From Bdellovibrionota bacterium (lineage in GTDB: Bacteria; Bdellovibrionota; UBA1018; CAIPTA01; JAALKR01), in NCBI GenBank assembly GCA_965207455.1, contig CBDBMJ010000003.1, forward strand, positions 192,001 to 256,000: 64,000 nucleotides of DNA, read 5' to 3'. A program made the position numbers and the translations under genes. The notes beneath the pieces are model-generated. The model searched no databases. It had not been told where the DNA came from and saw only the letters and a program-made list of their open reading frames with translations. Below, piece after piece: positions 4,158-44,434 of this stretch (within the stretch, counting starts at the first letter, position 1; every line of letters begins with the position of its first letter).

Positions 4158-4187
4158 CATCACTCGTAAATATTATTTTTTGACGAG
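4155..4187. repeat. ~33-bp direct repeat, copy 2
   Basis: TAACATCACTCGTAAATATTATTTTTTGACGAG; one substitution and one T indel relative to copy 1; overlaps the TAA stop. Confidence 0.85.
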
Positions 4188-4321
4188 AAAGCCTACAATT
4201 TTTACATGAAAGAGGTGCAGATGAGCGGGATATTGGAATAGCTGAAATCAAAATTAAAGAACTAGAAAAAGACGGCAAAGAATAAGAACACTCGCTGAAA
4301 GATTAACGTAACCGATACTAG

Positions 4322-4352
4322 AAAATCCCCTCCTACATGAGGGGATTTTTTT
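4322..4352. terminator. Rho-independent terminator, probably bidirectional
   Basis: AAAATCCCCTC-CTACAT-GAGGGGATTTT followed by a T-run, between convergent genes. Confidence 0.8.
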
Positions 4353-4392
4353 GCCTTCAGCAGCTAAGATAAATCAAAGCACCCCACAGTTC

Positions 4393-5262
4393 CTAAAATT
4401 TAATATTCGCTGTTGGCACAAGCTCATTACCGCCACTTTTACCATTCCCTAATTGCCCAACACTGTTGCTACCCCAGCATTTTGCAGTCCCATTACTTAA
4501 AAGAGCACAGCTATGCTCTGATCCAAGAGAAATGTCTATAGTACCAATAAACTCGTAGAGAGAACTTGCATCAGAGCAAGCAGAGCTATTGCCAGCCCTG
4601 TCCGTCTGCTTTGCGTAATGAGTATATTCTCCTAGACTACTTAAACTGGAATCTATTGTGATGGAGTTCTCTGTAGTTGTTTCTGATGCCACTTGGCTTT
4701 CTTCCGTACAAGCGCTGTGCGTGTATAGAGTAACTTCCGCTCCAATCTCTACGCCCGAGATCAAAAAACTAGGCGATCTATCCGGTGATGGACTGATAAC
4801 TCCTTCGGTAAATGCTATTGCTGATTCTGCTGGCGCTAGCGTATCTAAATGGTATTTTATTTCTAAGCAATCAAAAACCTCTGCCCCATTGGCATGTTTT
4901 GCATAATAAGTATATTCTCCATCATCAGTAATGGAACTTTTTAGCCCTACAGACACTTGACCATCTGCCGGGATTGAATCTGCGCTCACTGATTCTCCAG
5001 CACATTCCTCCATTACATGCAGGCTGACCAATGCTCCACCTCTCACATTGAAAAACTTAAAAGCTGGTGATGAGTTCTTAGAGTAGTATATGCCTTCCTC
5101 AGGATTAATTCCTTCTATTTCGATAGCAAATTCAGGCGGCGAATTAGGAGTAAACGAATTAAAGGGCAACAAATTACTACCCGAATCGCTACTGCTACAA
5201 CCAACAAGGGCGGCAAACAGTATAAACGGTATTATGTGGAGATTGAGATTCTTACACGCCAA
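4393..5262 (-). CDS. Lipoprotein with two Ig-like (Big) repeats and one C-terminal RCC1 repeat
   Basis: Lipobox ALVGC; two repeats SPxF...V..GA.V.L....C...GEYTxYAK; ends ISLGSEHSCALLSNGTAKCWGSNSVGQLG. Start placed at TTG 5262. Confidence 0.7.
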   Translation of the reverse strand: MACKNLNLHIIPFILFAALVGCSSSDSGSNLLPFNSFTPNSPPEFAIEIEGINPEEGIYYSKNSSPAFKFFNVRGGALVSLHVMEECAGESVSADSIPADGQVSVGLKSSITDDGEYTYYAKHANGAEVFDCLEIKYHLDTLAPAESAIAFTEGVISPSPDRSPSFLISGVEIGAEVTLYTHSACTEESQVASETTTENSITIDSSLSSLGEYTHYAKQTDRAGNSSACSDASSLYEFIGTIDISLGSEHSCALLSNGTAKCWGSNSVGQLGNGKSGGNELVPTANIKF

Positions 5263-5643
5263 TGTTCCACTGCTACGTAGGTTTTTCAAAACCCAACCTA
5301 AATACATGCAAGATGAACTACAAAGAGTTCCGAGCATTTTCACAAACAAATTATTCTTCTAACTTACACTTGTTAAAACGGTCGGAATCCGTAATACCTT
5401 TAGAGGTATTTTCATTATTAAATAAATACAAGAAAGAGTGTTGAAAAATTCTTCATTTGAACTCCAATACCGGACATGAAAAATAATTTAACCTTTTAAA
5501 ATTTTCCCCGATCTTAGAACCTTGCTGATAATTACGGATAGAGTAAAAATTGAGAAATACACAATATTGTCGCTACGTTCTGGTCTATCTCCCATAAAAA
5601 CCAGATTTTCCTTGAGTCCCCTTATTAGCTAAGGTATTCCTTG

Positions 5644-5753
5644 GGTGGGTGTATCTGGCCCCATGCAAGTTTCTAGGGTGAACTCCGCCAGGACTGGAAG
5701 GTAGCAACGGTAATCTAATGGAGCTGTGTTGTGGTTTCGCTGGGTCGCCCACT
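5644..5753 (+). ncRNA. ffs: Signal recognition particle RNA (small SRP/4.5S)
   Basis: Helix-8 core GCCAGGACTGGAAGGTAGCAACGG; terminal pairing GGTGGGTG/CGCCCACT; typical position upstream of dnaX. Confidence 0.85.
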
Positions 5754-5776
5754 ATCATAATATGGAGCATAAAAAA

Positions 5777-7417
5777 ATGTCTTACCTAGTATTAGCTCGA
5801 AAATATCGTCCCCAAAGTTTTCAGGAGCTTTTGGGTCAGGAACATATTACCCAAACCCTGAAAAACGCATTCCAGCAAAATAGGATTGGGCACGCCTATA
5901 TTTTTTCAGGCACTCGCGGCATTGGAAAAACAAGCCTTGCCCGACTCCTAGCCAAAGCCCTGCGCTGCGAGCACCCCGATGCCCAACCCGGCAAACCCAA
6001 GTACGGAACCTCTTGTAATACATGCCAGTCCTGTTCCGACATCACAAAGTCTGCCGCCCTAGACGTACTGGAAATAGACGGTGCCTCCAACAACGGTGTA
6101 GAGCATATTCGTGAGATACGAGAAAACGTCAAATTCTTTCCCTCCAACGGCACAACGAAAATATATATTATCGACGAAGTTCACATGCTCACGGGCGCTG
6201 CTTTCAACGCCTTACTAAAAACACTGGAAGAACCTCCGTCCCATATTATTTTTATTTTTGCCACAACGGAGATCCATAAGGTGCCGGCCACTATTCTCTC
6301 TCGCTGCCAACGCTTTGACTTAAAAAGAGCGCCCCAGTCTTTGATTTTTCAATTCCTCCAACTCATTACAGAAAAAGAAAAACTAGAGGCAGACCCCGGC
6401 GCCTTACAACAGATTGCCCAAAAGGCAAGTGGCTCCTTTCGGGATTCCCTTTCCCTCTTGGACCAAGTCATTGCCCACTCCCATAGTATGAGTGCTACCT
6501 CAATTACCGTAAAGAATACACAAGAGGTTCTGGGTATTGTCAGCCAAGAGCTGTTACAAGAAATATTTCATTCCCTAGTGAACAGCAATCCAGTTGCGGC
6601 TCTTATGCGTGTGCAAGATGCTTTTGAGTCGGGCATGAGCATGAAATCATTGGCGATAGCATTGGCTGAATATTTCCGTAATGCCGTTCTTATAAAATTA
6701 GGCGTTACAAAAAATTTACTAACAATTACAGACGAGCAAGCAGCAACACTTTCCAAAAGTCTGGGCGACACACAGGAAACCCTACAAGCGAGTTTTGAAG
6801 TGATCTCAAAATCCATTCCTGAAATTGCCCAAAGCCCCCTCCCAAAAGCCACCTTGGAAATGGCATTGATTCGAGTCTCTCAGTTAGGATCTTTGACCAG
6901 TGTAGCTGCTCTATTGGATCGACTTGAAAAGATGGAGAAAAACACGGCTGTACATGCTCCAGTCCCCATCGAGACTCCAGTCCCCACCGAGACTAGTCCT
7001 TGCCCACCCTCCAGCCATCCCCTCCAATGGGCACACTTTGTACAGTTTGCTCTCCAAAAACAGGCGAAGGTGGGAAGCCTACTGGAGCACGCCACACCCG
7101 TAACTCCCATAGAGGAATGGAAAAGCCAGCAAACCCTCCAAATAGGCTTTTTCCAGTCCTTTTATTACCAACAGGCAAAGGCTAGGAATAAAGAGTTAAC
7201 CTCCTTGGTGCAAGAATACATTGGGGCAGAGAAGCTCTTGGTCATAGCAAAGGTCGACCGAACTCAAAAAGCTAAGCCCTCTATTGTAGCCACTGCTCAA
7301 AAAAGTCACGCCCAAAAAACCGACAAATTAAAAGAGAAATTTTTGCAGCAAAAAATCGTGCATGATACAAAAGAGATACTAAACACAAAAATGATAGACT
7401 TTAGAGTAAAGGAGTAA
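5777..7417 (+). CDS. dnaX: DNA polymerase III subunit gamma/tau
   Basis: LARKYRPQSF, GTRGIGKTS, Zn cysteines, EIDGASN, IIDEVHML, SRCQRF. Start ATG 5777 follows GGAG. Confidence 0.95.
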   Translation: MSYLVLARKYRPQSFQELLGQEHITQTLKNAFQQNRIGHAYIFSGTRGIGKTSLARLLAKALRCEHPDAQPGKPKYGTSCNTCQSCSDITKSAALDVLEIDGASNNGVEHIREIRENVKFFPSNGTTKIYIIDEVHMLTGAAFNALLKTLEEPPSHIIFIFATTEIHKVPATILSRCQRFDLKRAPQSLIFQFLQLITEKEKLEADPGALQQIAQKASGSFRDSLSLLDQVIAHSHSMSATSITVKNTQEVLGIVSQELLQEIFHSLVNSNPVAALMRVQDAFESGMSMKSLAIALAEYFRNAVLIKLGVTKNLLTITDEQAATLSKSLGDTQETLQASFEVISKSIPEIAQSPLPKATLEMALIRVSQLGSLTSVAALLDRLEKMEKNTAVHAPVPIETPVPTETSPCPPSSHPLQWAHFVQFALQKQAKVGSLLEHATPVTPIEEWKSQQTLQIGFFQSFYYQQAKARNKELTSLVQEYIGAEKLLVIAKVDRTQKAKPSIVATAQKSHAQKTDKLKEKFLQQKIVHDTKEILNTKMIDFRVKE

Positions 7418-7421
7418 CGTT

Positions 7422-7754
7422 ATGCGAAAGTCCGGAGGAGGATTTGGAGGGAATATGCAACAGATGATGCAACAAGCCCAACAGATGCAAAAAAAAGTGC
7501 AAGAAGCCCAGGCAGCGTTGGCCACAGAGGAAGTGCAAGCCCAATCGGGTGGTGGAATCGTAAAAGTGACCGTCAGTGGAAACCAGGACTTACTGGATAT
7601 TACCATTGCCCCTGAAGCCTTAGAAGATGCAGAAATGCTCCAAGATATGGTAAAAGTAGCTATGAACAAGGCTCTAAAAGAGTCGAAAGAATTATCCGAA
7701 AAGAAAATGGGTGGCGCCATGGGAAACCTTCCCTTTCCCCCGGGGCTTTTTTAA
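7422..7754 (+). CDS. ybaB: YbaB/EbfC nucleoid-associated protein
   Basis: MQQMMQQAQQMQKK...SGGGIVKVTVSG; dnaX-ybaB-recR synteny. Confidence 0.93.
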   Translation: MRKSGGGFGGNMQQMMQQAQQMQKKVQEAQAALATEEVQAQSGGGIVKVTVSGNQDLLDITIAPEALEDAEMLQDMVKVAMNKALKESKELSEKKMGGAMGNLPFPPGLF

Positions 7755-32399: not shown

Positions 32400-33872
32400 A
32401 TGACACAAAAAAGAGCAAGCAAAATAAAAAATTCTACTTGGGACTTTTCCTACGACCCTGCCCCCGAGTCCACCTCTATTCTACAAATTCCATCTCAGTC
32501 TCAGTGCTGGATCGACGGAAAATTTGTGGATTCCTTGGGTCAGCAACATTTTTCATCTATAAACCCTGCCACGGGAGAGGTTTTAAGCCAGATACCCAAT
32601 GGAAACAAAAAGGATGTGGATAGAGCGGTACAGGCAGCAAGAAAAGCTTTTCCCCGTTGGAGTGCTTGTTCGGGTAAAGAGCGAGGACGTTATTTATTTC
32701 GTATTGCTCGAATGATTCAAGAGCAAGCTCGCCAGTTAGCTGTACTGGAAACGATGGATAATGGAAAGCCCATTCGGGAATCTCGTGATGTGGATATTCC
32801 TCTCGCTGCTGCCCACTTTTTCTATCATGCTGGTTGGGCGGATAAGTTAGAGTATGTTTTTCCTGGAAAGAAAGTACATCCTGTGGGTGTGGCTGCTCAA
32901 ATCATCCCATGGAATTTTCCTTTGTTGATGGCTGCTTGGAAAATTGCTCCTGCCCTAGCCACGGGTAATTGTGTTGTATTAAAACCTGCGGAAACCACTT
33001 CCCTAAGTGCGCTCCACTTAGCAAAAATCATACAGGAGGCGGGTCTTCCCGATGGAGTGGTGAATATTGTTACGGGAGATGGTGCCACGGGTGCTGCTCT
33101 TTGTGCCCATCCGGGGGTGGATAAAATAGCGTTCACTGGTTCCACGCAAGTGGGAAAAGAAATTGCAGGCACGATGGGGAGTGAAAAAAAGTTAACCTTA
33201 GAATTGGGTGGAAAATCAGCTCATATTATTTATGAGGATTGTGCCATTGATCAGGCAGTTGAGGGAATCATAAATGGAATTTATTTTAATCAGGGTCATG
33301 TTTGTTGTGCTGGATCTAGATTACTTGTGGAAGAGTCCATTGCTACCACGATTGTGAAAAAATTAAAGCAAAGAATGGCCCACCTTAGGGTGGGTAATCC
33401 ATTGGATAAAAATACGGACATTGGTGCCATAAATTCCAAAATGGAGTTAGATAAAATTCGTCATCTAGTGCAAGTGGGTAAGGACGAGGGTGGTGAGTAT
33501 TTTGAAGCGGCTCAGGGAGAGCTTCCTTCGAAAGGTTTTTTTCATAAGCCCTGTTTCTTTAATAATATTTCTTCTAGCGCTACGGTAAATCGCTTGGAAA
33601 TTTTTGGACCTGTGTTGGCCATATCTACTTTTCGTACACCTGAAGAGGCGATACAAAAAGCGAACGACACGCCCTACGGATTAGCTGCGGGTATTTGGTC
33701 AGAAAAAGGATCCAAGATTCATCACACGGCCAAGCACCTAAAAGCTGGTGTGGTGTGGGCCAATACTTATAATAAATTTGATCCTGCCTCTCCCTTTGGT
33801 GGCTACCATGAAAGTGGTTGGGGAAGAGAGGGCGGAAGACACGGGCTCCTGTCCTACTTGGAGGTGCAGTAA
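32400..33872 (+). CDS. Aldehyde dehydrogenase (catalytic)
   Basis: IIPWNFP, KPAE, FTGST, LELGGKS, NQGHVCCAGSR, EIFGPV, PFGGYHESG. Confidence 0.93.
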   Translation: MTQKRASKIKNSTWDFSYDPAPESTSILQIPSQSQCWIDGKFVDSLGQQHFSSINPATGEVLSQIPNGNKKDVDRAVQAARKAFPRWSACSGKERGRYLFRIARMIQEQARQLAVLETMDNGKPIRESRDVDIPLAAAHFFYHAGWADKLEYVFPGKKVHPVGVAAQIIPWNFPLLMAAWKIAPALATGNCVVLKPAETTSLSALHLAKIIQEAGLPDGVVNIVTGDGATGAALCAHPGVDKIAFTGSTQVGKEIAGTMGSEKKLTLELGGKSAHIIYEDCAIDQAVEGIINGIYFNQGHVCCAGSRLLVEESIATTIVKKLKQRMAHLRVGNPLDKNTDIGAINSKMELDKIRHLVQVGKDEGGEYFEAAQGELPSKGFFHKPCFFNNISSSATVNRLEIFGPVLAISTFRTPEEAIQKANDTPYGLAAGIWSEKGSKIHHTAKHLKAGVVWANTYNKFDPASPFGGYHESGWGREGGRHGLLSYLEVQ

Positions 33873-33873
33873 G

Positions 33874-34740
33874 ATGGACAATGTAAGCAATAATGAAACG
33901 AGTGTATTAAAAACCATAAAGCTTTATATAGGTGGGGAGTTTGTCCGTACGGAATCTGGGCGAAGTTTTCCCAGTTACGACGCTAATAAAAAACTCCATG
34001 CCCACCTATGCAAGGCCTCCCGTAAGGATGTGCGTAAATCGGTGGAGTGGGCTCAAAAGTCAACCCACTCTTGGGCATCTCGCAGTGCTTACAATCGAGG
34101 GCAAATACTCTACCGAATGGCAGAGATGGCACAAAGCAAACAAAAAGAATTTATGGATATTCACTTACAATGGGGTTGTACAAAAGAAGAGGCCCGTGCC
34201 TCGGTGAATTCCATTATAGATAGTTTTGTATACTACGGAGGTTTTGCAGATAAATTCTCTCAGTTGATGGGTGGAGTGAATCCTGTGAGTGGTCCTTTTC
34301 ATAATTTTACCACGCCAGAACCCATGGGTGTGGTGGGATTATTGATGAGCGACAAGTCCAGTCCCAAGGATCAGGCGCAAGTTTGGGTGGCCCGTTTGTG
34401 CGCTTTACTTTGTTCTGGAAATACGGTGCTGGCCCTATTGCCCCCATCGATTGCGTCCCTAATAGCCCCGCTTTCTGAGGTATTTGCCACTTCGGACCTT
34501 CCCCGTGGAACTGTTAATGTGTTGACGGGAAGTGTGGAGGAATTAGCACCTGTAATGGGAGAGCACATGGAAATTCAAGCGCTGTGTATTTGTGGCAACC
34601 CAAAGAGTTTTTCCCACTTGCACACAATGGGTGTTCATAATATGAAACGGGTTGTGGAAGTAAAATCTCCTCTGCTCTCTTTAGAAAGTATTCTCTCCTT
34701 TGTGGAGTACAAAACAGTATGGCATCCCATTGGAATGTAG
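33874..34740 (+). CDS. Short aldehyde-dehydrogenase-like protein (NAD-binding part only)
   Basis: KLYIGGEFVRTESGR, YNRGQILYR, EPMGVV, ends EYKTVWHPIG; no ELGGK and no catalytic Cys segment. Confidence 0.85.
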   Translation: MDNVSNNETSVLKTIKLYIGGEFVRTESGRSFPSYDANKKLHAHLCKASRKDVRKSVEWAQKSTHSWASRSAYNRGQILYRMAEMAQSKQKEFMDIHLQWGCTKEEARASVNSIIDSFVYYGGFADKFSQLMGGVNPVSGPFHNFTTPEPMGVVGLLMSDKSSPKDQAQVWVARLCALLCSGNTVLALLPPSIASLIAPLSEVFATSDLPRGTVNVLTGSVEELAPVMGEHMEIQALCICGNPKSFSHLHTMGVHNMKRVVEVKSPLLSLESILSFVEYKTVWHPIGM

Positions 34741-34751
34741 AAAGGAAGATA

Positions 34752-35666
34752 ATGAATAATACACCCATACTTTCTGTTGGTTCCCTCGCCTTTGATTCCA
34801 TTCAAGTTCCAGGGGATTCTGTAGAAGCGGCTCTTGGAGGATCAGCAAATTATTTTTCACTTTCGGCTAGTTTTTTTTCTCCTGTGCAAGTGGTGGGTGT
34901 TGTGGGAGAGGATTTTCCTCAAGAGCATTTACGTTATTTAGAGTCTCGAAATATCGACACGCAAGGAATTCAAGTTAAAGAAGGCAAGACCTTTCATTGG
35001 AAAGGAGAATATAAGGACGACTACAACAGTGCCATTACCCATGATACGGAACTCAATGTTTTTGGAGATTTTAATCCAGAGGTGCCTGCTCATTACGCCA
35101 AGGCCAAATATGTTTTCTTAGGTAATATTACTCCGAGTTTGCAATCTCGGGTGCTGGAGCAGGTGGAGAATCCCAGATTAATTGCACTAGACAGCATGAA
35201 CCTTTGGATCAATACCGCTAACGATGATTTGCAGGGCATACTAAAAAAAGTGAACTTACTTATCATCAATGATGGAGAGACTTGCTTGTTGGGTAAGAGT
35301 AAGAATGTTTTTACAGCGGCAGAAAAAATCATGGAGATGGGCCCTAAGTGCCTTGTTGTAAAGAGAGGTGAGTACGGTGCTTTCCTTCTTATGAACGGTG
35401 AGTATTTTGTAGCGCCGGCAGTACCTTTAAAGCAAATAAAAGACCCCACGGGGGCAGGCGATACTTTCGCAGGTGGTTTGTTAGGGTATTTAGCGTCTCA
35501 AGATTGCGACCTCAGCGACACAACTGTTCTCAAACAAGCTCTTCTATATGGAACCGTAATGGCCAGCTTTGTGGTACAGGATTTTAGTTTTCTTCGACTA
35601 AAGACGATCAGCTCAAAAGATATTCAAGCAGTCTATAAGAAAATTTCTTCCATGATTACTTTATGA
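34752..35666 (+). CDS. PfkB-family carbohydrate/nucleoside kinase
   Basis: VGSLAFDSI, LGGSANY, VKRGEYGA, DPTGAGDTFAGG. Confidence 0.9.
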   Translation: MNNTPILSVGSLAFDSIQVPGDSVEAALGGSANYFSLSASFFSPVQVVGVVGEDFPQEHLRYLESRNIDTQGIQVKEGKTFHWKGEYKDDYNSAITHDTELNVFGDFNPEVPAHYAKAKYVFLGNITPSLQSRVLEQVENPRLIALDSMNLWINTANDDLQGILKKVNLLIINDGETCLLGKSKNVFTAAEKIMEMGPKCLVVKRGEYGAFLLMNGEYFVAPAVPLKQIKDPTGAGDTFAGGLLGYLASQDCDLSDTTVLKQALLYGTVMASFVVQDFSFLRLKTISSKDIQAVYKKISSMITL

Positions 35667-36260
35667 CTCTTCTTGAAAGTGAATAACGGGCAGCGTTTTA
35701 TTGGGAAGAAATTTCTTCTCATTCATTCGAAACTCAATCTCATTATTTTTTTCAGCAATTGCCAGCGACGGAGCCTTTTTATTTTTTTGAGTCATGGCCC
35801 TTCGAGAAATCCATTGTGAGTATAGTACAGGCTTAAATGTGCTGTCTTTTTTATACTCCAAGATAGTCCAGTAGAAATCTTGGTATTGGGAAGTCCTACC
35901 TACGGCATGTGTCCAGCCCTTGAGTTCCACAAAAATTCTTCCTTTAATCCGTATTATTTTTGGCTTTACCCAGCTTCCATACTGTAGAACATTGTCAACG
36001 AACGGCTCCAGCTTTATTTTCGCTGCCCATTTAGAGGGAACAAAATAAAGTTGCATGCCATTGCTTGTTTCTCTCAATTCAATAAATTTTTTACCAACTA
36101 GGGGGACTTTATTAATTCGATGGCTTGTATTTTTCCCTTCAACGTCTGTCGTTGAGAAAGAAAAAATTAGTAGCATAAGGCAGTATTTTATATGGATTCT
36201 GCTTTTTTGGATATTTTTTCGTGCTTGCATATTTTCTCCTATTATTTTTTCCTTTGACAT
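35661..36260 (-). CDS. Hypothetical exported protein
   Basis: Hydrophobic signal-like segment YCLMLLIFSFSTT; start overlaps the stop of the upstream 708-aa gene. Confidence 0.65.
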   Translation of the reverse strand: MSKEKIIGENMQARKNIQKSRIHIKYCLMLLIFSFSTTDVEGKNTSHRINKVPLVGKKFIELRETSNGMQLYFVPSKWAAKIKLEPFVDNVLQYGSWVKPKIIRIKGRIFVELKGWTHAVGRTSQYQDFYWTILEYKKDSTFKPVLYSQWISRRAMTQKNKKAPSLAIAEKNNEIEFRMNEKKFLPNKTLPVIHFQEES

Positions 36261-38368
36261 TCCGCTCTCTCTTCCGCAGTCCGCGGTACTGGGCGAAAGA
36301 AAGAAACCGCTGGTTTGCTCTCTGCTATTTCAATATCACCTATATGTGTTACGGAATATTTTTCTGGTTTAGAATAACAAGCAAATCCTGGTTTTGAATC
36401 ACCATGACAAAAGAAAAAATTAAAGTCTTCTGCTAGTTTTTCTCCCTTACTTTTATAGGGGTACTTCTCCTTAAAATTCTTTGGATCACAGTAAGCTTCT
36501 CTAGATAGTTTTACGGCTAAATCCCATCGCTTTGGAGATTCTTTCTTAGGACAAAGGGTGCTACTTAAATTACCATGGTCTTTTACTTGAGGATTCCATA
36601 CGGAAAATTGATATCTTTTGGAAAGCACTCTTTCCTCTGGGGTCATATTTTCCACCCGTTCGCTTTCTCCTTTCTTTCTAGCAAAATTCCCTTTATATAT
36701 TTGTTCATAATTTCCCGGTTCTTTCCGTTTCCTAACATTATTTCTAAATACTTTATTATTCTCAAACCTTGTACGATCAGCAATGGTTCGAAGAGAGTAA
36801 ATATAATGGCCATTGGACTCACTATCACCTTCTGTTTCCACACTTCGAACCTCGCTATATATTGTTCTAGCCATGGCATCAATTGTACGCAAATCTCGGA
36901 AAGTCATTTTTTCACCAAGCCTGCATGTTAATTCAGATTCAGCAAGTTTGCTATGAATCTTATCTTTTTTCTTATCCCAATCAGCATAGACATGCCTGTC
37001 ATAAGAACTCATATTATGATTACCAATTCCATCCTTAAATTTAATACAAGCACCTGTATTATCTTTTAGAAATTCTTCGTCTTGTTCCTTCTCAGCTTGG
37101 ATCAAAGCTTGTGTTGCTTGAGCAACTCCATTATTTGACGATTTTTGTGAACATCCATATACCTCAATATAATGGAGAATTTGATCAGCCGTCAGTTTCG
37201 TGCTGAAACTATTATTCCTGGCTTGTATATTAAAATCTCCAAATTCTCTTAATTGTGCTAACTGTGCTAACTCGGACGAAGTAACTTTTACATTAAATTT
37301 TTTCAATATAGCGCAATATATGGGATTCTTTCCTTCTTCACAAGATATACCTCCTGGACTAAGTTGGGCTGCTTGTTTTTTTGTCGGTTTTTTTGCTGCT
37401 GATTTTGCTTTTAATTGCTCTAGTTCTACTGCTTGTTTTGCCGCTTGTTTCGCTGCTTGTTTTTCTTGTTTTGCTGCTTGTTCTACTGCTTGCCTTGCCT
37501 GTTTTGCTTCCTCTGACTTCAATTGTGCTAGTTTTACTGCTTCTTCCGCCAATAGCCTTTCTTCTTCTTTCTCTCTTAAATCAGCCTCTGCTTGTGCTAA
37601 TTCTGCCTCTAATTGCGCCTGTTTTGCTGCCTCTTCCGCTGCTTCTTTTGCGCTTGATCTTCTTGCTTGGCTAAACGGATCGTATTCCATGCTTTTTTGC
37701 TTTTCTTTCATTTCTGACGTCAATCGTTCTACAGTTCTTTCTATTTTATCTAATTCCAAAGATTTCTGTATGTTAATGTTCCCTAAGCTGAAATTTCCTG
37801 TCCTTTTTTTCCAGGGAGATGCCCATCCCTTTTCAAAAACGATTGTTTTTTCCTCTTCATTCCATGGCTTAAATGTCAATACTCTGTTGGTATCTCCAGA
37901 CCTGCCTAGTGAACGTGTGCCTTCAGAAATATAGTAAGGGATAGGGTTTCCGCCCTTCACTGTTGAACGTTTTAATCCTACGATACGAAGATTTTTCTTC
38001 TTGAGCTCTACCCAACCTCGCCTCTTATTTCCCCCATGCTTCATAAAAGTGGCATAAATAAAATTACGACCACGAAATCTCCGTACCACTATCTTTTGCT
38101 CTCCCCATTCATCGACAGCAATATAGCCTTCGGAAAGCTTCTCGCTAGGCTTGCAAGCAGGGCCTCCTTGAGTTGAATCGCTACACGGTTTCTTCACACA
38201 AGCTTCCAGCTCTTTTGCCGTTAATTTGGGGGAACATTGAGGGTAGTAAACAGGATTACCCACCATACTGTAACTCACATGATCAATTAGCAGGGTAGTC
38301 TCTGCTACCGTGTTAATGGTAAATAAACAAAGAGTTACAGACAAACAGGAAATAAAAACTCTCTTCAT
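36242..38368 (-). CDS. Secreted modular protein: Cys-rich N-domain, coiled coil, C-terminal SleB/Hydrolase_2-like cell-wall hydrolase
   Basis: Signal peptide; Ala/Glu/Lys/Gln-rich coiled coil; C-terminal AMARTIYSEVRS...TIADR...VLSKRYQFSVWN resembles Hydrolase_2 motifs. Confidence 0.7.
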   Translation of the reverse strand: MKRVFISCLSVTLCLFTINTVAETTLLIDHVSYSMVGNPVYYPQCSPKLTAKELEACVKKPCSDSTQGGPACKPSEKLSEGYIAVDEWGEQKIVVRRFRGRNFIYATFMKHGGNKRRGWVELKKKNLRIVGLKRSTVKGGNPIPYYISEGTRSLGRSGDTNRVLTFKPWNEEEKTIVFEKGWASPWKKRTGNFSLGNINIQKSLELDKIERTVERLTSEMKEKQKSMEYDPFSQARRSSAKEAAEEAAKQAQLEAELAQAEADLREKEEERLLAEEAVKLAQLKSEEAKQARQAVEQAAKQEKQAAKQAAKQAVELEQLKAKSAAKKPTKKQAAQLSPGGISCEEGKNPIYCAILKKFNVKVTSSELAQLAQLREFGDFNIQARNNSFSTKLTADQILHYIEVYGCSQKSSNNGVAQATQALIQAEKEQDEEFLKDNTGACIKFKDGIGNHNMSSYDRHVYADWDKKKDKIHSKLAESELTCRLGEKMTFRDLRTIDAMARTIYSEVRSVETEGDSESNGHYIYSLRTIADRTRFENNKVFRNNVRKRKEPGNYEQIYKGNFARKKGESERVENMTPEERVLSKRYQFSVWNPQVKDHGNLSSTLCPKKESPKRWDLAVKLSREAYCDPKNFKEKYPYKSKGEKLAEDFNFFFCHGDSKPGFACYSKPEKYSVTHIGDIEIAESKPAVSFFRPVPRTAEERAECQRKK

Positions 38369-38464
38369 ATTAATAAATTGTACGCTTACCCCTTAGATAA
38401 AACAACGGGAAGATAATACAAAGGTCTGTTTTTTTGTAACAGGTATTTTTTTTCAAAGTTGATG

Positions 38465-39837
38465 CTATTTATTTTTATCCTCGTCTTTAATGATTATATA
38501 TCCTCTCTGATCTAGTTCCCTATCTGTACCTTTCAAAACCTCCCGAGCATTCAAAGATTTTTCCAAGGCAAGCATTGCTTCCATAGTTGTTCTAAATACA
38601 ACCAACAGTTCTCGCAAGCGGCGGGTATTCATTTTCCCTGCCTGCATGAATGAGTATACCTGTTCTTGCCTCATTATATCCTTCTCCAACATCCATATAA
38701 ATTCTAGCCTTATTCTTTCCCACATTATGCCTTTCTGTTGGGTCTGCGGGAACAAAATTCCCAATTGGAAATTTTACATTTGCTGGAAGCGGACCCCTGC
38801 CTCCCGGCTTCCATGGATCAACTTTTGCTTTCTTTACCGGAACCCTGTTTGTAGCCTCAAAAATTTCAAATGTACTGTCCGGAAAATAAATGGTTAATTT
38901 ACCAACATTAACCAATTCATTCCTATCATCATAAAGTTCACTTCTTTTTTCACCGGTCCTATCAAAAACAGCAATTACTTTTGGATCTCTTTTACTCGCT
39001 TTTTCTAGCGCAACAAGCGGAACACTAAGATCTATCCCTCCCGTTGGAGAGGGCTGTCTTTGACATCCGTTTACCTCAATATAATGGAGAATTTGATCAA
39101 CCGTCAGTTCTGCACTAATAATGCTATTCTTATTTTGCATATCAAAATCCATCAGTTTGCTAAGTGCCGGTATTTCAGCAATAGTCACTATTAGCTTAAG
39201 TTTTTCTTGCTCCAATTCCTCCTGTTCTAATTTCTTTTGTTTCATTTTCTTTAGGTTCTCAACTATCCTGTCTTTTTCCAATATGGCGCAGTATATGGGA
39301 TTCTTTCCTCCCTCACAGAATATGCTTTTTGGACTCAACGGAATTTCTTGTTTTGCTGGTAGCTTTAACTCTTTCTTACTTGTCTTCTTTTTGGGCTGTC
39401 TCCAAGGCTGACTTTTCACCAGTTCCTTTTCCAGTTGTACTGTAATTGTTTCCATTTCTTTTAATTCCAAAGATTTCTGATCGGTGATTTTTTTGTGCGT
39501 GTGGTTTCTTAACCTTTGTTCCCAAGGAGAACGATTAACTTTTTCAAAAACAATTGGTCTTTTTCCCTTATTCCATGGTTCAATCTTTAATATTTTCTTC
39601 TCTCCAGCCCCGCCTAATGGAAGCGTATTTACGGAAATATTGGAAACAATATAGTTTTTTTTTGCTGTTGGATTTTTCACTCCTATTAGACGAAGAGTTT
39701 TCTTCTTGACCTCCACCCAGCCTTTTTTCTTCTCTATGCCTCCTGTATCAGAAAAACCGGCATGAATAAATATTCTACCATCATACAATTTTCTCACTTC
39801 AAACCCCGGCGCTCCCTTTTCTTGAATAATAATATTA
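38465..39837 (-). pseudogene. 3' part of an IS-disrupted paralogue of the 708-aa gene, with Tlde1/L,D-transpeptidase-like C-terminus
   Basis: Shares GWVE.KKK.LR..G.K, CE.GKNPIYCAIL and LT.DQILHYIEV.GC with 36242-38368. C-terminus has GPLP and GILIHAGR..RTVGCI. A one-base frameshift near 38594 separates a tail ending at 38465. Confidence 0.75.
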
Positions 39838-39845
39838 CCTTCAGG

Positions 39846-41051
39846 GTAACTAGTGGTCTAACCACTTAATTTTTTCACTTTTCTTGGAAGCGCAGTGCCG
39901 TGGCTTGTCGCATTTTTTGAGCAATCATTAAGACATGAATCCAGTAGAACTGAGTGATAGTGACTTACTCGAAATAAATAATGTTATAAAAAAAAGCGAA
40001 AATAACAGAATAGTTGTAAGGGCCATTGCCCTAAAAATGAAATATCTAAACCATACAAATATGGGTGCGGCAGAGGTTCTGAATATAACCCCTAGGACAG
40101 TGATTAATATTTGTAGCTACTATAGTAGCGGAAGGAATAGAATCTGCTTTAAACGATGACCCAAGACCAGGGAGGCCAGTAGAAATAGATGATAGAATAA
40201 AGTCTAAAATTGTTGCAATAGTCTGCAGTGACCCACCTGAAGCTTTTGATCGCTGGACATTGGAACTCATACAAGAGCAAGTAATAAAAGATGATATCGC
40301 TGAAAAAATAAGCAAAGAAAAAATCAGAATAATGCTCCAAGAGCATGATTTAAAACCTTGGAGATATGATATGTGGTGTGTGCCCAAGTTAGATAAAGAG
40401 TTTATCAATAGAATGGAAGATATATTAGATATCTATGAGATGCCTGTAGACGATAATGATCCTATAGTGTGCATTGATGAGAAATCGATCCAGTTACTTG
40501 ATAATAAGCGAGAGGAAAGTTGTACAAAAGAAGGGTCAATTAGAAAAATTGATCATGAATACAAGAGAAATGGAGCAGCAAATATATTTATGGCGGTAGA
40601 ACCCAAGAAGGGTATTTTTCATGCCAAGGTTACCGATAATAGGACGGGAAAAGATTTCGCTAAATATCTTTCTCAAATAGAAAGGAAGTATTCAAATTCT
40701 AAAAAAATCATTTTAGTAATGGATAATTTGAATACTCACAAAGAAAAATCATTACTCGATTTCTATGGAACGGATAAGGGGAAAAAGCTCTGGAAAAGAT
40801 TTGAAGTGCACTACACGCCAAAGCACGCCAGTTGGTTAAATCAAGCTGAGATCGCAATAGGTATGTACTCACGGCAGTGTCTGGGAAAAAGAAGAATTGG
40901 ATCTATCGAAGACCTGAGAAAAAAGACAAATGGTTGGGTCAGTGCAATTAATTCTAAAGAAGTAATAATTAAATGGAAATTTAACAAGGTCGAAGCTAGG
41001 GAAAAATTCAAATATAAAGTGAAAAAATTAAGTGGTTAGACCACTAGTTAC
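39846..41051 (+). mobile_element. IS630-family insertion sequence, 1206 bp, 36-bp perfect TIRs
   Basis: TIR GTAACTAGTGGTCTAACCACTTAATTTTTTCACTTT at 39846-39881, exact reverse complement at 41016-41051; flanked by CCTTCAGG at 39838-39845 and 41052-41059. Confidence 0.92.
39935..41039 (+). pseudogene. IS630 transposase with a frameshift near 40123
   Basis: HTH ORF 39935-40159; a second frame continues EGIESALNDDPRPGRP...RWTL into DDE motifs CIDEK, VMDNLNTH, HYTPKHASWLNQAE. Confidence 0.88.
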
Positions 41052-41311
41052 CCTTCAGGAAGCTTCTCCCCAGCCTTACAGTTGCCGACATGTGGGTCTC
41101 CAAAAGCACCATCAAGCTGCTGTTCACATGGCCTCCCAAGACAGTCAGCCAATGCTCCTTCCTTTAAGTCAGGCGAACACTTGGGATAATAAGTAGTCTC
41201 ACCTACCACACCGTAGCTCATATAATCAAATAGACCAGCAATAGCTCTTGGATTAGCAAATAAAGCAAGAATTATAAATAAACGAATATATAAAAAACCT
41301 AGATCAATCAC
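41052..41311 (-). pseudogene. 5' part of the IS-disrupted paralogue
   Basis: Signal peptide plus SY..VG...YYP.CSP.L....L..C...PC...CK..EKL.EG, matching the 708-aa N-terminus. Removing the IS and one TSD copy gives in-frame KLPEGNIIIQE. Confidence 0.85.
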
Positions 41312-42798
41312 TGTGCACTTTTCTTTTTAATTTGTTTGCCGCTTGCTGGTGTCGAGGATCTCTTAACCCTTAACCACCCTGTTTTCCTCTGACATCTGGG
41401 ATTGAGATAAGAGTAGCTATCTTTTATTACCTTGTCGGGATACTTTAGAATTTCACTCTTTCTGCTTTTCTCTGTAAGGCCCTTCATAAGCTTCTTCTTA
41501 CTTCCAAATGAGAGATCACTCTCATGTATAAATTTCTTAAACTTCTCAAGCGTTTTGTAATTTTTTATTCCCCTTACTATTTTTTGGTACTCTCCTATTT
41601 CCTTAGCACGTCTTTCTAACGTTTTTTTATTCTTATTTTCTATCCTCTTCTCCACGAGAACCTTAATCTCATCGATAAGCGTGTTCAAAGAGTCAACACC
41701 TTTTTTTAATTTACCACAATAATTATGCGCAAACGAAAATAAGCTTACACCAGCATTATGTGCCCATGTGGCCAATAAAATTGGGAACTTCAATTCGACT
41801 TCAATTTTGTTTGAGCCCCTACCTATGGAGTATGTTAAGCGCTGATTCTCTGGCTCAAGCCACTCTACTATTTCCCTAGCTGTTTTTCCAGTATCACCTT
41901 TTTTTCTCGTCAATTTCTTAAAATTATTTTGGCAATTACTTAAAAGTTTATTTGCTTCTGCAAGATTTTCCTTAAATTGAAGGGTGCTGTATAGCATACA
42001 CAAGTGGGGGTTTTCCAAAAACTGGCACCTGCGATATATGTAGATCACATCTTCAATATCTTTTCTTGACGTTGCACCAACAAATTTGGGAATCCTATCT
42101 GGAAAATTCTCATATCCATGAGATTTTCGAATCTTCTCTCTTGTACTTTTACATTGCTCAGATTTAAATTGCTTACTGAAAGCACTGTTCTTTTTAAAAT
42201 AATTATGTGTTTGCCGCACTGAATCGCCAGTGAGCTGCCCCAAGCAAGTAGCACCCCAATCGCTTTGCGCGTTTAGTTTAAGTTTAGATTCATGAATAAG
42301 TAAAGGCAGCATAGAAAAGTAATCAATACCCACACATTCTCCCACATCCCTTAAAGCTTCCTCAATACTTGCAACATAATTTTTATTAATGCAAAATGCT
42401 CCTCTTTTCATACTAAGGAGCCTTTTATTTTTCCAACTCACCTCTTGCCTTCTCAATTCCTCCTTGTATATTTTCCCATCGGTTCCTCTTCTCTCAACGA
42501 TTTCACCTGAGTCTATGCAGTAAGCATAAAACTTCCCTTTAATACCGACCTTCATAGCTGGCAATAAACAGCTGTAATCCTTACACCGTTTATCATCCCA
42601 GCGAGCAGAATTTTCATCCCAGTGGGCAGAACTTTCATCCCAGCGTTGACTATATTTTTCTATAATATCCTGCTTTTCTTCACATTCGCCAACATTTAAT
42701 CTGCACACAGCCAAGCATTCGCTAGGAACAAGCACAGGCAAGCAGAATAATATCAATGTAAAGAAGAGCTTTATTCTGTTCAGATACGGAGAAATCAT
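41308..42798 (-). CDS. Secreted SLT/lysozyme-like lytic transglycosylase-domain protein, paralogue A
   Basis: Signal peptide; LLIHESKLKLNAQSDWGATCLGQLT and LATWAHNAG correspond to SLT motifs ES, GLxQ and AYNAG. Confidence 0.7.
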   Translation of the reverse strand: MISPYLNRIKLFFTLILFCLPVLVPSECLAVCRLNVGECEEKQDIIEKYSQRWDESSAHWDENSARWDDKRCKDYSCLLPAMKVGIKGKFYAYCIDSGEIVERRGTDGKIYKEELRRQEVSWKNKRLLSMKRGAFCINKNYVASIEEALRDVGECVGIDYFSMLPLLIHESKLKLNAQSDWGATCLGQLTGDSVRQTHNYFKKNSAFSKQFKSEQCKSTREKIRKSHGYENFPDRIPKFVGATSRKDIEDVIYIYRRCQFLENPHLCMLYSTLQFKENLAEANKLLSNCQNNFKKLTRKKGDTGKTAREIVEWLEPENQRLTYSIGRGSNKIEVELKFPILLATWAHNAGVSLFSFAHNYCGKLKKGVDSLNTLIDEIKVLVEKRIENKNKKTLERRAKEIGEYQKIVRGIKNYKTLEKFKKFIHESDLSFGSKKKLMKGLTEKSRKSEILKYPDKVIKDSYSYLNPRCQRKTGWLRVKRSSTPASGKQIKKKSAQ

Positions 42799-42844
42799 TT
42801 TTCAAAAACCTCTAAAATTCAAACATAGTGTTTGGTAAAATAAA

Positions 42845-44434
42845 TTAATTGCCACGAGAACCGCCCTTGGCATTGCCTCCAGCACTGCCCCCTGAGGGGT
42901 TAAAACTAAGCCAGCCTATTTTTTCTTGGCATGATTGGGATTGTTTGTCAGCACGCACTGAATCCACATTGCCATAAATGTAATTATCAGGCTTGAGATA
43001 TTGATAACCATCCTCTATCGTACTTTCAATATAGCCTAAAATTTCTCTCGTTCTATTTATTTTTCCTTTCACAACCTTCTGAACTCCAGCATAAGCTTTT
43101 TTATTCAAGCTTTTTATGTGATTCATAAATGCTTCAAGTGTTTTGTATTTTTTCAGAATACCTAGCAATTCACTACTCTCGCCATGGGTTTTCACAATAT
43201 ACTCCTCGGTTGCGCTTCTATCATCCTTTTTTCTTTTTTTCTCTGCAATATCTCGTACTTCATTCTGCACATCATTCTTCACTTTCTTACCGCGCCTCAG
43301 TGCTCGTACTATTCTGTTGCAGTAGCTATCCACATAGCCAAATAATTCTCCGCCAACATTGTGTGCCCATGTGCCCAATAAAGTTTGTGCCTTAAGCTCA
43401 ACATTCGTTTTTTTATTTAAGGAGTATGTAAATTTCTGATCCTCTGGCTTAAGCCAATCTGCTATTTCCTTCGCTTTTTTTCCGCGAAACCCGTCAATCT
43501 TTTTTTGGCATTTCTTTAAATGAGCGGCTGCCCTGTCGGAATTCTTCTTAAAATAGAGCGTTGAATACAGCAGGCACAAATAAGGGTTATCTATAAACGC
43601 ACATCTAAATCTTGGTTCATCTGTATTGAATTTATGTATTTGATCATTGTCACTCCAATATGTGGGGAAATGTTCGTTTGGAAGAAATGGAAAATTTGCA
43701 TATTCCTCATTTTTTCGAATTTTATCCCTTGTATTTTTACATTCCGAATTCGTACTAAACCTCTGTATAAAATCAGTAGATTTTCTATCTGGAACCTTTC
43801 CTCTCTTGTTTTCCACAGGAGTTCTCTCTCCAAAATATTTTTTATTCACATCAGCTATTGCAACACCAGTGAGTTGCCCTAGGCAAGAGGCTCGAGCACC
43901 GCTTTGTGCATTCAGACCAATTCTAGACTCATGGATGAGCAATGGCAATATGGAAAAAGGCTCAATGCCCACGCACTTGCCCACTTCTTTTAAGGCATCC
44001 GCAATAACTGCAACATGCTTTTTATCAACACAAGGCTTACTCCTTCTTCTCATTCTGTTAGTCTCTTGGCGCCATTTGCCGGATTTATTTTTTTTACAAT
44101 ACGCATACCCACTACCTCTCGTGCTATCCTGCCATCTATTCCTTGGTGCTGATGCAAGGGCAGCCTCCATGGCTGGCAGCAAACAACCATAGTTTTCACA
44201 TTTTTTATTATCCCAACCAGGAGATAATTCATTCACTCTTTCCTGATGTTCGATTACAAGCTTATACCCTGCATGTTCATATATTCTTTCCTTACCCTTA
44301 TATTCCTTACACTTTTCCCGTATTGTACAAACACCCGATCCTTCAGCATGAGTAAACACTGATGCGAGCAAATAAATCAGCACTGCGCTCAACATAAATA
44401 AGAGATTTTTTTTATGTATGTGCTGGGAAAACAT
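42845..44434 (-). CDS. Secreted SLT/lysozyme-like lytic transglycosylase-domain protein, paralogue B
   Basis: Signal peptide; LLIHESRIGLNAQSGARASCLGQLT and GTWAHNVG; Cys pattern collinear with 41308-42798. Confidence 0.7.
   Translation of the reverse strand: MFSQHIHKKNLLFMLSAVLIYLLASVFTHAEGSGVCTIREKCKEYKGKERIYEHAGYKLVIEHQERVNELSPGWDNKKCENYGCLLPAMEAALASAPRNRWQDSTRGSGYAYCKKNKSGKWRQETNRMRRRSKPCVDKKHVAVIADALKEVGKCVGIEPFSILPLLIHESRIGLNAQSGARASCLGQLTGVAIADVNKKYFGERTPVENKRGKVPDRKSTDFIQRFSTNSECKNTRDKIRKNEEYANFPFLPNEHFPTYWSDNDQIHKFNTDEPRFRCAFIDNPYLCLLYSTLYFKKNSDRAAAHLKKCQKKIDGFRGKKAKEIADWLKPEDQKFTYSLNKKTNVELKAQTLLGTWAHNVGGELFGYVDSYCNRIVRALRRGKKVKNDVQNEVRDIAEKKRKKDDRSATEEYIVKTHGESSELLGILKKYKTLEAFMNHIKSLNKKAYAGVQKVVKGKINRTREILGYIESTIEDGYQYLKPDNYIYGNVDSVRADKQSQSCQEKIGWLSFNPSGGSAGGNAKGGSRGN

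Follow-up and report, generated by a model that had tools for sequence, protein, structure and literature searches.

The described proteins that come closest to the gene pair analysed here are several kinds of wall-modifying enzymes and one kind of toxin. Spore-cortex lytic enzymes of the SleB/CwlJ type carry the Hydrolase_2 domain (PF07486), whereas LD-transpeptidases (YkuD, PF03734) and the type VI effector Tlde1 (PF10908) have a His ... Thr-x-Gly-Cys-hydrophobic motif near the C-terminus. In Sec-dependent polymorphic toxins (APD1/APD2, MAFB-N, MicroscillaN; Zhang et al. 2012, PMC3482391), a signal peptide and a lineage-restricted N-terminus precede a conserved junction, after which the C-terminal enzymatic domain varies. 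Finally, the secreted predatory peptidoglycan enzymes of Bdellovibrio bacteriovorus include DacB endopeptidases with an ankyrin self-protection protein, LD-transpeptidases, the lysozyme DslA and MltA-like Bd3285 (PMC3276566, PMC4686830, PMC10127604, PMC7511926, PMC13689555). As exported enzymes of the same phylum and the same chemical classes, these resemble the proteins discussed below, and they show by precedent that a wall enzyme can have its protective protein encoded beside it; none of these published enzymes has a SleB-type domain, and none of the present analyses links the pair to predation.

The two genes, A and B, lie in a 64,000-nucleotide stretch of a Bdellovibrionota genome (GCA_965207455.1, contig CBDBMJ010000003.1, positions 192,001 to 256,000), hereafter the window. 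We consider them to be, more likely than not, tandem paralogues for Sec-exported modular peptidoglycan enzymes of a cell-wall set. They belong to a block of six genes, all on one strand, for predicted exported orphan proteins, and this block has a G+C content of 0.365-0.385, compared with mostly 0.40-0.46 elsewhere in the window. The block includes two upstream paralogues of 496 and 529 aa (41308-44434, minus strand, as A and B), which are 34% identical to each other and in which SLT-like E-S ... G-Q ... H-N-x-G motifs were recognised by eye; a third such paralogue elsewhere in the genome gave a sub-threshold SLT match (E 0.04). Downstream, a 199-aa ORF with a signal-peptide-like start (35661-36260, minus strand) overlaps the 3' end of A. 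Pfam, PADLOC and NCBIfam assign it to no family, and a search of 126 further genomes from the class gave a single weak match (E 0.005); a role as a partner or self-protection protein is only a conjecture.

Gene A (36242-38368, minus strand, as are all its parts) is an intact ORF of 708 aa with a signal peptide, the scaffold shared with B, a linker and a SleB-like domain; a public protein collection holds a 708-aa protein 99% identical to its product, and that allele is intact too. The protein begins with a signal-peptide-like stretch (approximately residues 1-23, 38300-38368), in which a hydrophobic core and, after it, a small-residue site were read from the sequence. Next come a cysteine-rich head (residues 27-85, 38114-38290), whose counterpart in B was identified by BLASTP and alignment, and a middle domain with the GWVE-KKK-LR block common to B (residues 94-224, 37697-38089). 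Alignment and a repeat family delimit the next part, an Ala/Lys/Glu/Gln-rich, coiled-coil-like spacer (residues 225-330, 37379-37696), which is mostly missing from B in the alignment and gives nothing but low-complexity pseudo-hits in Pfam and NCBIfam. The last shared module (residues 331-406, 37151-37378) runs from C-E-x-G-K-N-P-I-Y-C to H-Y-I-E-V-x-G-C, and its end is the junction.

In total, approximately 400 N-terminal residues are common to A and B at 40-49% identity, with BLASTP matches between the heads (27/61 residues identical, E 1e-14), the middle domains (61/154, E 7e-24; 56/129 in the codon alignment) and the last modules (49/121, E 3e-20). Right after the common G-C motif (A residue 406), the two diverge completely: ungapped DNA identity drops to 32%, and the C-termini show no similarity by BLASTP and an hhalign probability of 0.16%. 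Thus, the common scaffold, the unrelated C-terminal domains and the break after the last GC, all proposed in a sequence-only reading of this DNA, are borne out, and the homology between the two C-termini that it had named as contrary evidence did not appear. The near-identical DNA that it had noted at approximately 37150-37200 versus 39063-39110 is real, although short: the 15 codons that precede the junction match at 42 of 45 bases, including a 28-base perfect run, and the repeat search gave 79% over 87 nt (37151-37237 versus 39063-39149). Within these 15 codons, all 13 identical residues share codons, compared with identical third bases at 16/27 and 40/56 upstream, in statistics that are post hoc and derived from two sequences. 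Judged from these sequence comparisons, the pair is a real case of domain swapping; it is not a proven toxin system.

On the minus strand, gene B is split into three pieces. The head piece (41051-41311, 87 codons) encodes a signal-peptide-like start and the cysteine-rich head; it opens with a GTG that overlaps the stop codon of the gene upstream. The frame of the body is open from 39846 down to a TAG stop at 38592-38594 (listed ORF of 401 aa, 38592-39797); its scaffold part (39063-39846) reaches to the junction Cys and comprises the middle domain, a short spacer and the last shared module. The tail is read in the next frame, as far as a stop at 38465. Between head and body lies a 1200-bp IS630-family element (39849-41048, plus strand) with terminal inverted repeats (DDE_3, E 4e-30; NCBIfam IS630 transposase, E 3.3e-50, 171 bits versus a cut-off of 100), the transposase of which is itself split over two frames. 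A second, internally deleted IS630 copy is present elsewhere in the same genome. The element is flanked by a TA duplication (39847-39848 and 41049-41050), and the earlier joining of B at approximately 41052/39837 is therefore essentially right; the frame is open across the join. The same reconstruction, however, had read without mention through a second lesion, a one-base frameshift at 38592-38597 that immediately follows the G-C-I codons; the extra base is absent from a sibling haplotype in run X1. Gene B is dead in this strain through the IS630 insertion and the frameshift, while gene A is intact.

Another important question is what the two C-terminal domains are, as neither gave a match in Pfam, NCBIfam or PDB sequence searches, even at E <= 10, and Foldseek found none in the PDB. 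For the C-terminal domain of A (residues 438-708, 36245-37057), an AlphaFold model was obtained (pLDDT 78.7, pTM 0.83) and compared with 48,161 chains by VIA-align. The two best matches were SleB catalytic domains, 4fet_A (Z 7.1, aligned residues 120/122) and 4f55_A (Z 6.8, 118/128), followed by SpoIID in third place (Z 3.4); a Z of approximately 7 can arise by chance for models of such kind, and the SleB call is drawn from the gap to the next row together with independent profile evidence. In hhalign, the A family matched 15 Pfam-positive Hydrolase_2 ORFs of the phylum with a probability of 70.5% (E 3.9e-5), and a low-confidence extension of this alignment places Glu506 (codon 36851-36853, minus strand) on the conserved Glu of Hydrolase_2. 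A bridging homologue, a 537-aa ORF of genome G050, is hit by both the A-family profile (E 4e-11) and Pfam Hydrolase_2 (27.4 bits, cut-off 27). In G050, a SleB-like gene again adjoins two LD-transpeptidase-fold genes, in keeping with the proposed enzyme pair.

Residues Asp497, Arg501, Thr502, Glu506 and Arg532 are invariant in 23/23 sequences of the A family, and A retains all eight invariant residues, although it lacks a cysteine (model position 81) present in more than 90% of the family. Like the Hydrolase_2 ORFs of the phylum, A has A-R-T-x-Y-x-E with the invariant Glu, N/D-R and Q-F-S-x-W in the same order. It differs from SleB in its low sequence identity (13-14%, missed by the Pfam model), in long insertions that are poorly defined in the model (residues 111-128 and 226-233 of the piece), in lacking the SleB-type N-terminal peptidoglycan-binding domain and in its Gram-negative host, which is not known to sporulate. 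The SleB/Hydrolase_2 guess made from the sequence is therefore backed by the predicted fold, the profile comparison and the bridging homologue, which indicate a divergent domain of this type. Its unnamed family is present in 49/400 other Bdellovibrionota genomes, mostly with one match per matching genome and in a few with two or three, and follows at least five unrelated N-termini across the phylum. In five complete genomes of genus g113, the match is located between 2.56 and 2.86 Mb. The B. bacteriovorus member is annotated only as a hypothetical protein.

The C-terminal domain of B (38465-39062, minus strand) carries near its end an H-x12-T-V-G-C-I motif with His384 and Cys400 (Cys codon 38598-38600), preceded, as in YkuD and Tlde1 proteins and in the same order, by G-P-L-P-x-N and strand-like segments. 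An LD-transpeptidase (YkuD)-like identity is plausible from this motif, from the language-model neighbours (YkuD, Tlde1 and DUF5675 clusters, 0.86-0.89) and from an hhalign score against 27 YkuD ORFs of 23.7, reached by 0/120 shuffles (12.1 +/- 2.2), at a probability of 14%. On the other hand, neither PF03734 nor PF10908 matches, the His-to-Thr spacing is 12 residues instead of the 14-17 quoted for LD-transpeptidases (PMC9638812), Val replaces the His of S-H-G-C, and the gene is broken. The more specific Tlde1/DUF2778 identity suggested earlier is not supported: the comparison with the two Tlde1 ORFs detected in this phylum gave a probability of 0.4% and a score within the shuffle range (reached by 14/120), with no Pfam match. 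In addition, unlike for Tlde1, neither type VI genes nor a cognate immunity gene for B were found.

How far does the scaffold extend beyond this locus? Exhaustive phmmer against 1.84 billion representative proteins returned A and B only, and a profile of the N-terminal ~400 aa gave, in 280 other genomes of the phylum, four marginal matches of 15.7-20.3 bits, approximately at chance level. The highest score of the front part in the language-model comparison, 0.79 with SH3b clusters, is likewise at chance level. The scaffold was found neither in the sole other genome of the same family nor in the other genomes searched in the order (0/10; 0/7 in the profile search), which is unusual for housekeeping genes and, together with the low-G+C orphan character of the block, makes it unlikely that A and B are autolysins remodelling the cell's own wall (growth, shape, insertion of envelope machines) and unrelated to attacking other cells. 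Such a role would fit the ordinary cell-wall genes that the window also contains (an S13 carboxypeptidase, a penicillin-binding transpeptidase and a canonical SLT), the Sec-type signal peptides read from the sequence on both proteins, the tolerated loss of B in this strain and the self-acting LD-carboxypeptidase reported for Bdellovibrio (PMC8938487).

The absence of a further scaffold member also leaves the sample at two genes in one genome, with no polymorphism to tabulate, and the claim of a polymorphic family is not supported. Quite improbable, in our estimate, is the corresponding scenario in which the front part delivers or anchors the proteins, recombination at the junction exchanges C-termini that serve as antibacterial warheads, and the small ORF behind A confers immunity or self-protection. 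It is in line with the single scaffold bearing two unrelated wall-attacking C-termini at a sharp junction, the locally high synonymous identity there, the exported orphan ORF overlapping the A stop, the lower G+C of the block and the Sec-dependent precedents cited above. Nevertheless, the junction statistics come after the fact from n=2 sequences, the genome holds no stand-alone C-terminal cassette bearing the junction, no gene at all lies between B and A as an immunity candidate, and no established immunity gene was found. Pfam and NCBIfam detected no known trafficking domain, type VI sheath (VipB) and Hcp genes were not found in the genome (94.7% complete), and the A domain belongs to a conserved, widespread phylum family, unlike a hypervariable cassette; with its varied N-termini it shows the reverse of a constant scaffold with changing C-termini. 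That the block is a functionless, decaying remnant in which A is merely still unbroken, as the two independent lesions in B and the orphan status of the genes could suggest, is highly improbable given the 708-codon open frame of A with all its family-invariant residues, the equally intact 99% identical allele and the B frame kept at the frameshift site in the sibling haplotype.

We therefore return to tandem paralogues for modular peptidoglycan enzymes as the best explanation of the whole. Each protein would consist of a signal peptide and a lineage-restricted front part of ~400 residues (cysteine-rich head, middle domain, variable-length spacer and four-cysteine module), with an unrelated catalytic domain joined on immediately after the module's final G-C. 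The pair would have originated by duplication, after which a new C-terminal domain took the place of the old one at the conserved junction. The most likely activity of the A domain is that of a lytic transglycosylase cleaving the glycan strand by means of Glu506, and the B domain most likely acted on peptide stems via Cys400. The common front part would most likely hold or place both enzymes at one common site, either in the envelope or on the target wall. LD-transpeptidases and lytic transglycosylases are secreted by Bdellovibrio onto the walls of prey (PMC13689555, PMC10127604), and the six-gene block looks like a set for cell-wall remodelling or attack, the target of which may be the prey wall or the bacterium's own.

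Genes A and B lie within a block of six tightly packed minus-strand ORFs running from 45241 to 35661, all of which have signal-peptide-like starts and no Pfam family. The G+C content of this block is 0.365-0.385, compared with mostly 0.40-0.46 over the remaining window, and scans with Pfam, NCBIfam and PADLOC found no family in any of the six genes except an IS transposase. Gene A (36242-38368, minus strand) is an intact 708-codon frame. Directly upstream on the same strand, gene B has a GTG start overlapping with the stop codon of the 496-aa gene before it and falls into three pieces: a head of 87 codons (41051-41311), a body that terminates in T-V-G-C-I followed by a stop codon (38592-38594) and a tail in the next frame that ends at 38465. 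The 96-bp gap between B and A is free of ORFs, and the stop of A is overlapped by a 199-aa ORF (35661-36260, minus strand) with a signal-peptide-like start, an exported orphan without family or relatives.

The comparison of A with the pieces of B revealed a common front part of approximately 400 residues, hereafter the scaffold. BLASTP aligned the cysteine-rich head (27/61 identical residues, E 1e-14), the middle domain (61/154, E 7e-24) and the last module (49/121, E 3e-20), and the Ala/Lys/Glu/Gln-rich spacer is ~100 residues longer in A than in B. The Cys in a G-C pair is the last homologous residue (residue 406, base 37151, in A; base 39063 in B). The sequence-only reading had pointed to near-identical DNA at this junction and to complete divergence after the last G-C, and both observations were borne out: 42 of the 45 bases in the last 15 codons before the junction are identical, including a 28-base perfect run, and the ungapped DNA identity past the junction is 32%. 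All 13 identical residues in these 15 codons are encoded by identical codons; among the identical residues further upstream, the third base is the same in 16/27 and 40/56 cases. This local excess of identity, noticed post hoc in two sequences, fits a recombination or gene-conversion tract. We regard this as a genuine, neatly delimited replacement of the C-terminal domain, in a pair of predicted exported wall enzymes that is specific to the lineage.

One member of the pair, B, is now a pseudogene. Its head is split from its body by a 1200-bp element (39849-41048) with terminal inverted repeats and TA on either side, which encodes a DDE_3/IS630-family transposase (Pfam E 4e-30; NCBIfam E 3.3e-50, 171 bits, cut-off 100). 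The genome contains a further copy of the element, with an internal deletion and 99-100% identity, on a different contig. When the element and one TA were removed in silico, the frame of B was open and the flanking residues aligned with residues 81-98 of A. The frame of B is additionally shifted by one base straight after the G-C-I codons.

The locus was found, in the form of contigs, in only one public sequencing run (X1), probably the source sample; nothing was found in run X2. An X1 contig at depth 21 is identical to the window across the frameshift site of B, while in another the match stops at 38595, after which the letters correspond to the window shifted by one base; we read this as a sibling haplotype of B with an unshifted frame at this site. 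A further X1 contig of 130 nt (depth 12.8) differs from the window at 9 positions between 38433 and 38561 and has one base inserted there, a divergence of ~7%; the inserted base sits behind 38497, past the stop codon. The 3' end of B thus occurs in a second haplotype, and two related strains coexist in the X1 sample. As for an empty insertion site, no X1 contig spans the element, and contigs cannot show its absence.

The insertion element displays several features of its own. Its depth in run X1 is 60-90, versus 21-25 in the flanks. The transposase in the copy inside B is divided between two frames, as ORFs 39935-40159 and 40260-41039, and the collapsed element contig of X1 (depth 61.9) is one base shorter at 40132, which places both parts in one frame; the element is therefore probably active in the population, with a defective variant inserted in B. 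Short hairpins followed by T-rich runs, resembling terminators, occur at both element ends (39852-39866 and 41031-41045). Read on the minus strand, they would stop transcripts arriving from upstream of B, and thus A may need its own promoter within the 96-bp gap. A scan for promoters and terminators was at chance level (33 sites versus 28.6 ± 4.8; 14 versus 10.5 ± 3.2).

An important question is which enzymes were placed behind the junction. For A, neither the whole protein nor its C-terminal piece matched the Hydrolase_2 model PF07486 (gathering score 27 bits) at E <= 10, and a search of the whole genome with this model likewise gave 0 matches at E <= 10. Searches of PDB sequences with the A and B pieces and with profiles A1 and A3 returned nothing meaningful. 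An exhaustive phmmer search with A of 1.84 billion representatives yielded five proteins at E <= 0.001, namely A's own cluster, the body of B and three proteins of 450-617 aa matching only residues 454-686 of A; the profile built from them added one more protein. Applied to 401 Bdellovibrionota genomes, the profile of the A domain had matches in 50, that is, in 49 of 400 when the genome of the window is excluded, and in 30 of the 53 genomes of one family. The matching frames are 240-759 aa long, and in each of them the match lies C-terminally. According to exact look-ups, members are annotated only as hypothetical proteins of Bdellovibrio bacteriovorus (including ATCC 15356/DSM 50701), Bdellovibrio sp. 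and a Bacteriovoracaceae MAG.

To this family we applied both structural and profile comparisons. The alignment comprised 23 rows: A, 18 of 20 ORF domains from 19 loci (the omitted two being near-duplicates) and four database proteins. Asp497, Arg501, Thr502, Glu506, Arg532, Leu601, Cys606 and Pro607 are invariant in it. The AlphaFold model of the A C-domain obtained with this alignment had a pLDDT of 78.7 and a pTM of 0.83; an earlier model from a 5-row alignment reached a pLDDT of only 60.4. Foldseek found nothing in the PDB at E <= 0.001 with either model. VIA-align, run over 48,161 representative chains, ranked the catalytic domain of Bacillus anthracis SleB first (4fet_A; Z 7.1, rmsd 3.3, 120/122 aligned) and that of B. 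cereus SleB second (4f55_A; Z 6.8), followed by SpoIID at Z 3.4. With hhalign, the A family was aligned to 15 Pfam-positive Hydrolase_2 ORFs of the phylum at a probability of 70.5% (E 3.9e-5), and a 537-aa ORF of another Bdellovibrionota genome, G050, was matched both by the A-family profile (E 4e-11) and by PF07486 (27.4 bits in one search and 29.6 in another). Glu506, invariant in 23/23 rows, meets the conserved Glu of Hydrolase_2 only in the low-confidence extension of the hhalign alignment. Because of the structural matches to SleB, the hhalign result and the bridging G050 ORF, we accept the C-domain of A (residues 438-708) as a divergent SleB/Hydrolase_2-type domain, as the sequence-only reading had proposed, in a predicted new subfamily that falls outside the Pfam model.

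Two further observations concern this family. A Cys stands four residues past the invariant Glu in more than 90% of the members, and a second one, at position 177, is present in every member. At the first of these sites, model position 81 of its C-terminal piece, A carries Val instead, so that the probable disulfide of the family would be missing in A. In the Bdellovibrio-family genome G366, two SleB-like genes are arranged in tandem (locus L027, G366:C1:2677577-2681236); therefore, the family duplicates locally in other genomes too.

The C-domain of B (38465-39062) proved harder to place. No match to the YkuD model (PF03734) was obtained at E <= 10, either with the natural piece or with a read-through containing X, and a genome-wide YkuD search matched only another gene (C3:432522-432935). 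Relatives of the domain were found in 0 of 400 other genomes of the phylum, and a word-index search, which covered only proteins of 86-275 aa, gave 0 of 36 candidates at E <= 10. Near its C-terminus, B carries the motif H384-x12-T-V-G-C400-I. The LD-transpeptidase motif published in PMC9638812 is H-x(14-17)-[S/T]-H-G-C-hydrophobic. The His, Thr, Gly, Cys and hydrophobic residue are all present in B, although the spacing is shorter (12 versus 14-17) and Val replaces the second His, a position that is likewise variable among the YkuD ORFs of the phylum. Language-model neighbours (YkuD, Tlde1 and DUF5675 at 0.86-0.89) served as a lead only. The hhalign comparison of B with YkuD ORFs (27 of 30 phylum loci, three cut by a contig end having been dropped) gave a probability of 14% and E 0.0019 over 37 columns, and none of 120 composition-preserving shuffles reached its score of 23.7 (mean 12.1, sd 2.2, max 20.1). 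On the strength of the motif and this score, we lean towards an LD-transpeptidase-like fold for B. Of the original suggestion of a Tlde1/DUF2778/YkuD-like domain, the YkuD-like part appears plausible, outside the Pfam model. Specific membership in Tlde1 was unsupported: B had no match to Tlde1_dom (PF10908), and in comparison with two Tlde1_dom ORFs, found in 201 genomes, hhalign gave a probability of 0.4% and a score that 14 of 120 shuffles reached.

A similar combination of genes was observed in another Bdellovibrionota family. In locus L074 (G050:C1:423000-434000; 4131-7693, minus strand), a 537-aa SleB-like gene precedes, on the same strand, a 141-aa exported ORF and two proteins of 210 aa each, the first a YkuD protein with S-H-G-C and the next one with a G-C motif that resembles the LD-transpeptidase motif. 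Pairing of SleB-like with LD-transpeptidase-type enzymes may recur.

These data raise a key question: does the pair belong to a polymorphic toxin system, as initially suggested? Toxins that depend on Sec and have lineage-specific N-terminal domains form a class described in PMC3482391. According to the boldest version of this idea, the front part would be a targeting module of a new, Sec-dependent kind that brings interchangeable wall-attacking enzymes to the prey wall, new enzymes are joined to it by recombination at H-Y-I-E-V-x-G-C, and the 199-aa ORF protects the producer. A conserved junction before a variable domain is indeed present, in a sample of two sequences, and in the position of an immunity gene the 199-aa exported orphan overlaps the stop of A; none lies behind B. 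The search with the scaffold profile for further C-termini was negative to empty. No third scaffold member was found in a word-index search of 5.8 billion proteins, in the exhaustive phmmer search of 1.84 billion representatives, in the genome itself or in 10 other genomes of the order. In 280 other genomes of the phylum, the profile gave four matches at about chance level (15.7-20.3 bits, per-genome E 3e-4 to 7e-3), and among 20 full-length SleB-like ORFs and the proteins P0001-P0007 it matched only A and B (P0001 and P0002), the others scoring no better than E 0.5. In a protein atlas, the best value for the scaffold, 0.79 to SH3b clusters, was at chance level by the tool's own figures. One N-terminal architecture in front of many C-termini was not found: the scaffold has two members only, in databases that may lack close strains. 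The genome (94.7% complete) has no stand-alone cassette with the junction and 0 matches to the type VI secretion families VipB and Hcp.

The SleB-like domain shows the reverse pattern, one C-domain behind differing N-terminal regions: those of 24 family proteins fell into groups of 14 and 6 and four singletons, A among the singletons (one ORF with its N-terminal part cut off was omitted). A complex prediction for the A C-domain with residues 41-199 of the 199-aa ORF scored 0.00 and bears on the question neither way. The positive support for a polymorphic toxin system is limited to A and B, and we do not consider such a system established; the full targeting-module scenario appears unlikely to us. 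If it were true, A and B would represent the predatory counterpart of a polymorphic effector family. The more exciting claim, a new delivery domain for polymorphic toxins, is so far unsupported, with two genes as its basis.

The surroundings of the pair were also inspected. When all ORFs at the retrieved loci with SleB-like genes were searched by phmmer for the 199-aa protein, the 267-aa protein and the two SLT-like proteins, nothing was found at E <= 1. In three relatives, TatC and the pfkB kinase lie apart and are hence uninformative on an insertion of the block. Three paralogous exported proteins of ~490-530 aa (34-39% identical) are encoded at 41308-42798 and 42845-44434 and elsewhere in the same genome (G000:C3:423301-424455). 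Their shared motifs E-S, G-Q-L-T and H-N-x-G follow one another as in SLT lytic transglycosylases; the Pfam SLT model matched at E 0.04 at best, in the third copy only, and residues 131-233 have weak relatives in 27 of 300 other genomes of the phylum. Finally, a 330-aa ORF (33748-34740) lies behind a full-length aldehyde dehydrogenase; its match to the Aldedh model covers only 10-233 of the 461 positions, and it is a shortened or decayed paralogue.

Predators of the Bdellovibrionota are being investigated as a source of enzymes that can harm the cell walls of Gram-negative bacteria. We suggest that both proteins would be exported by the Sec pathway, after which the common front part would take A and B to the same place; there, A would cut glycan strands and B, if intact, would edit peptide stems, the target being either the prey wall or the cell's own wall. 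Secretion by Bdellovibrio of LD-transpeptidases and lytic transglycosylases acting on the prey wall is described in PMC13689555 and PMC10127604. In the literature searched, no link between SleB-type enzymes and Bdellovibrio was found beyond one general review; the accessions of the B. bacteriovorus family member were not found there, nor in the supplements of a Bdellovibrio predation proteome paper (one supplementary PDF excepted).

In the A/B pair, nature provides a clear example of how a catalytic domain can be replaced while the junction in front of it stays fixed. A useful by-product of the analysis is an unnamed SleB-like family across a predatory phylum, whose 402-aa member in Bdellovibrio bacteriovorus is still annotated as a hypothetical protein. 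For this unannotated family, present in 49 of 400 other Bdellovibrionota genomes, the result provides a name and a testable activity, and a new class of lytic transglycosylases would extend the list of wall-damaging enzymes of these predators.
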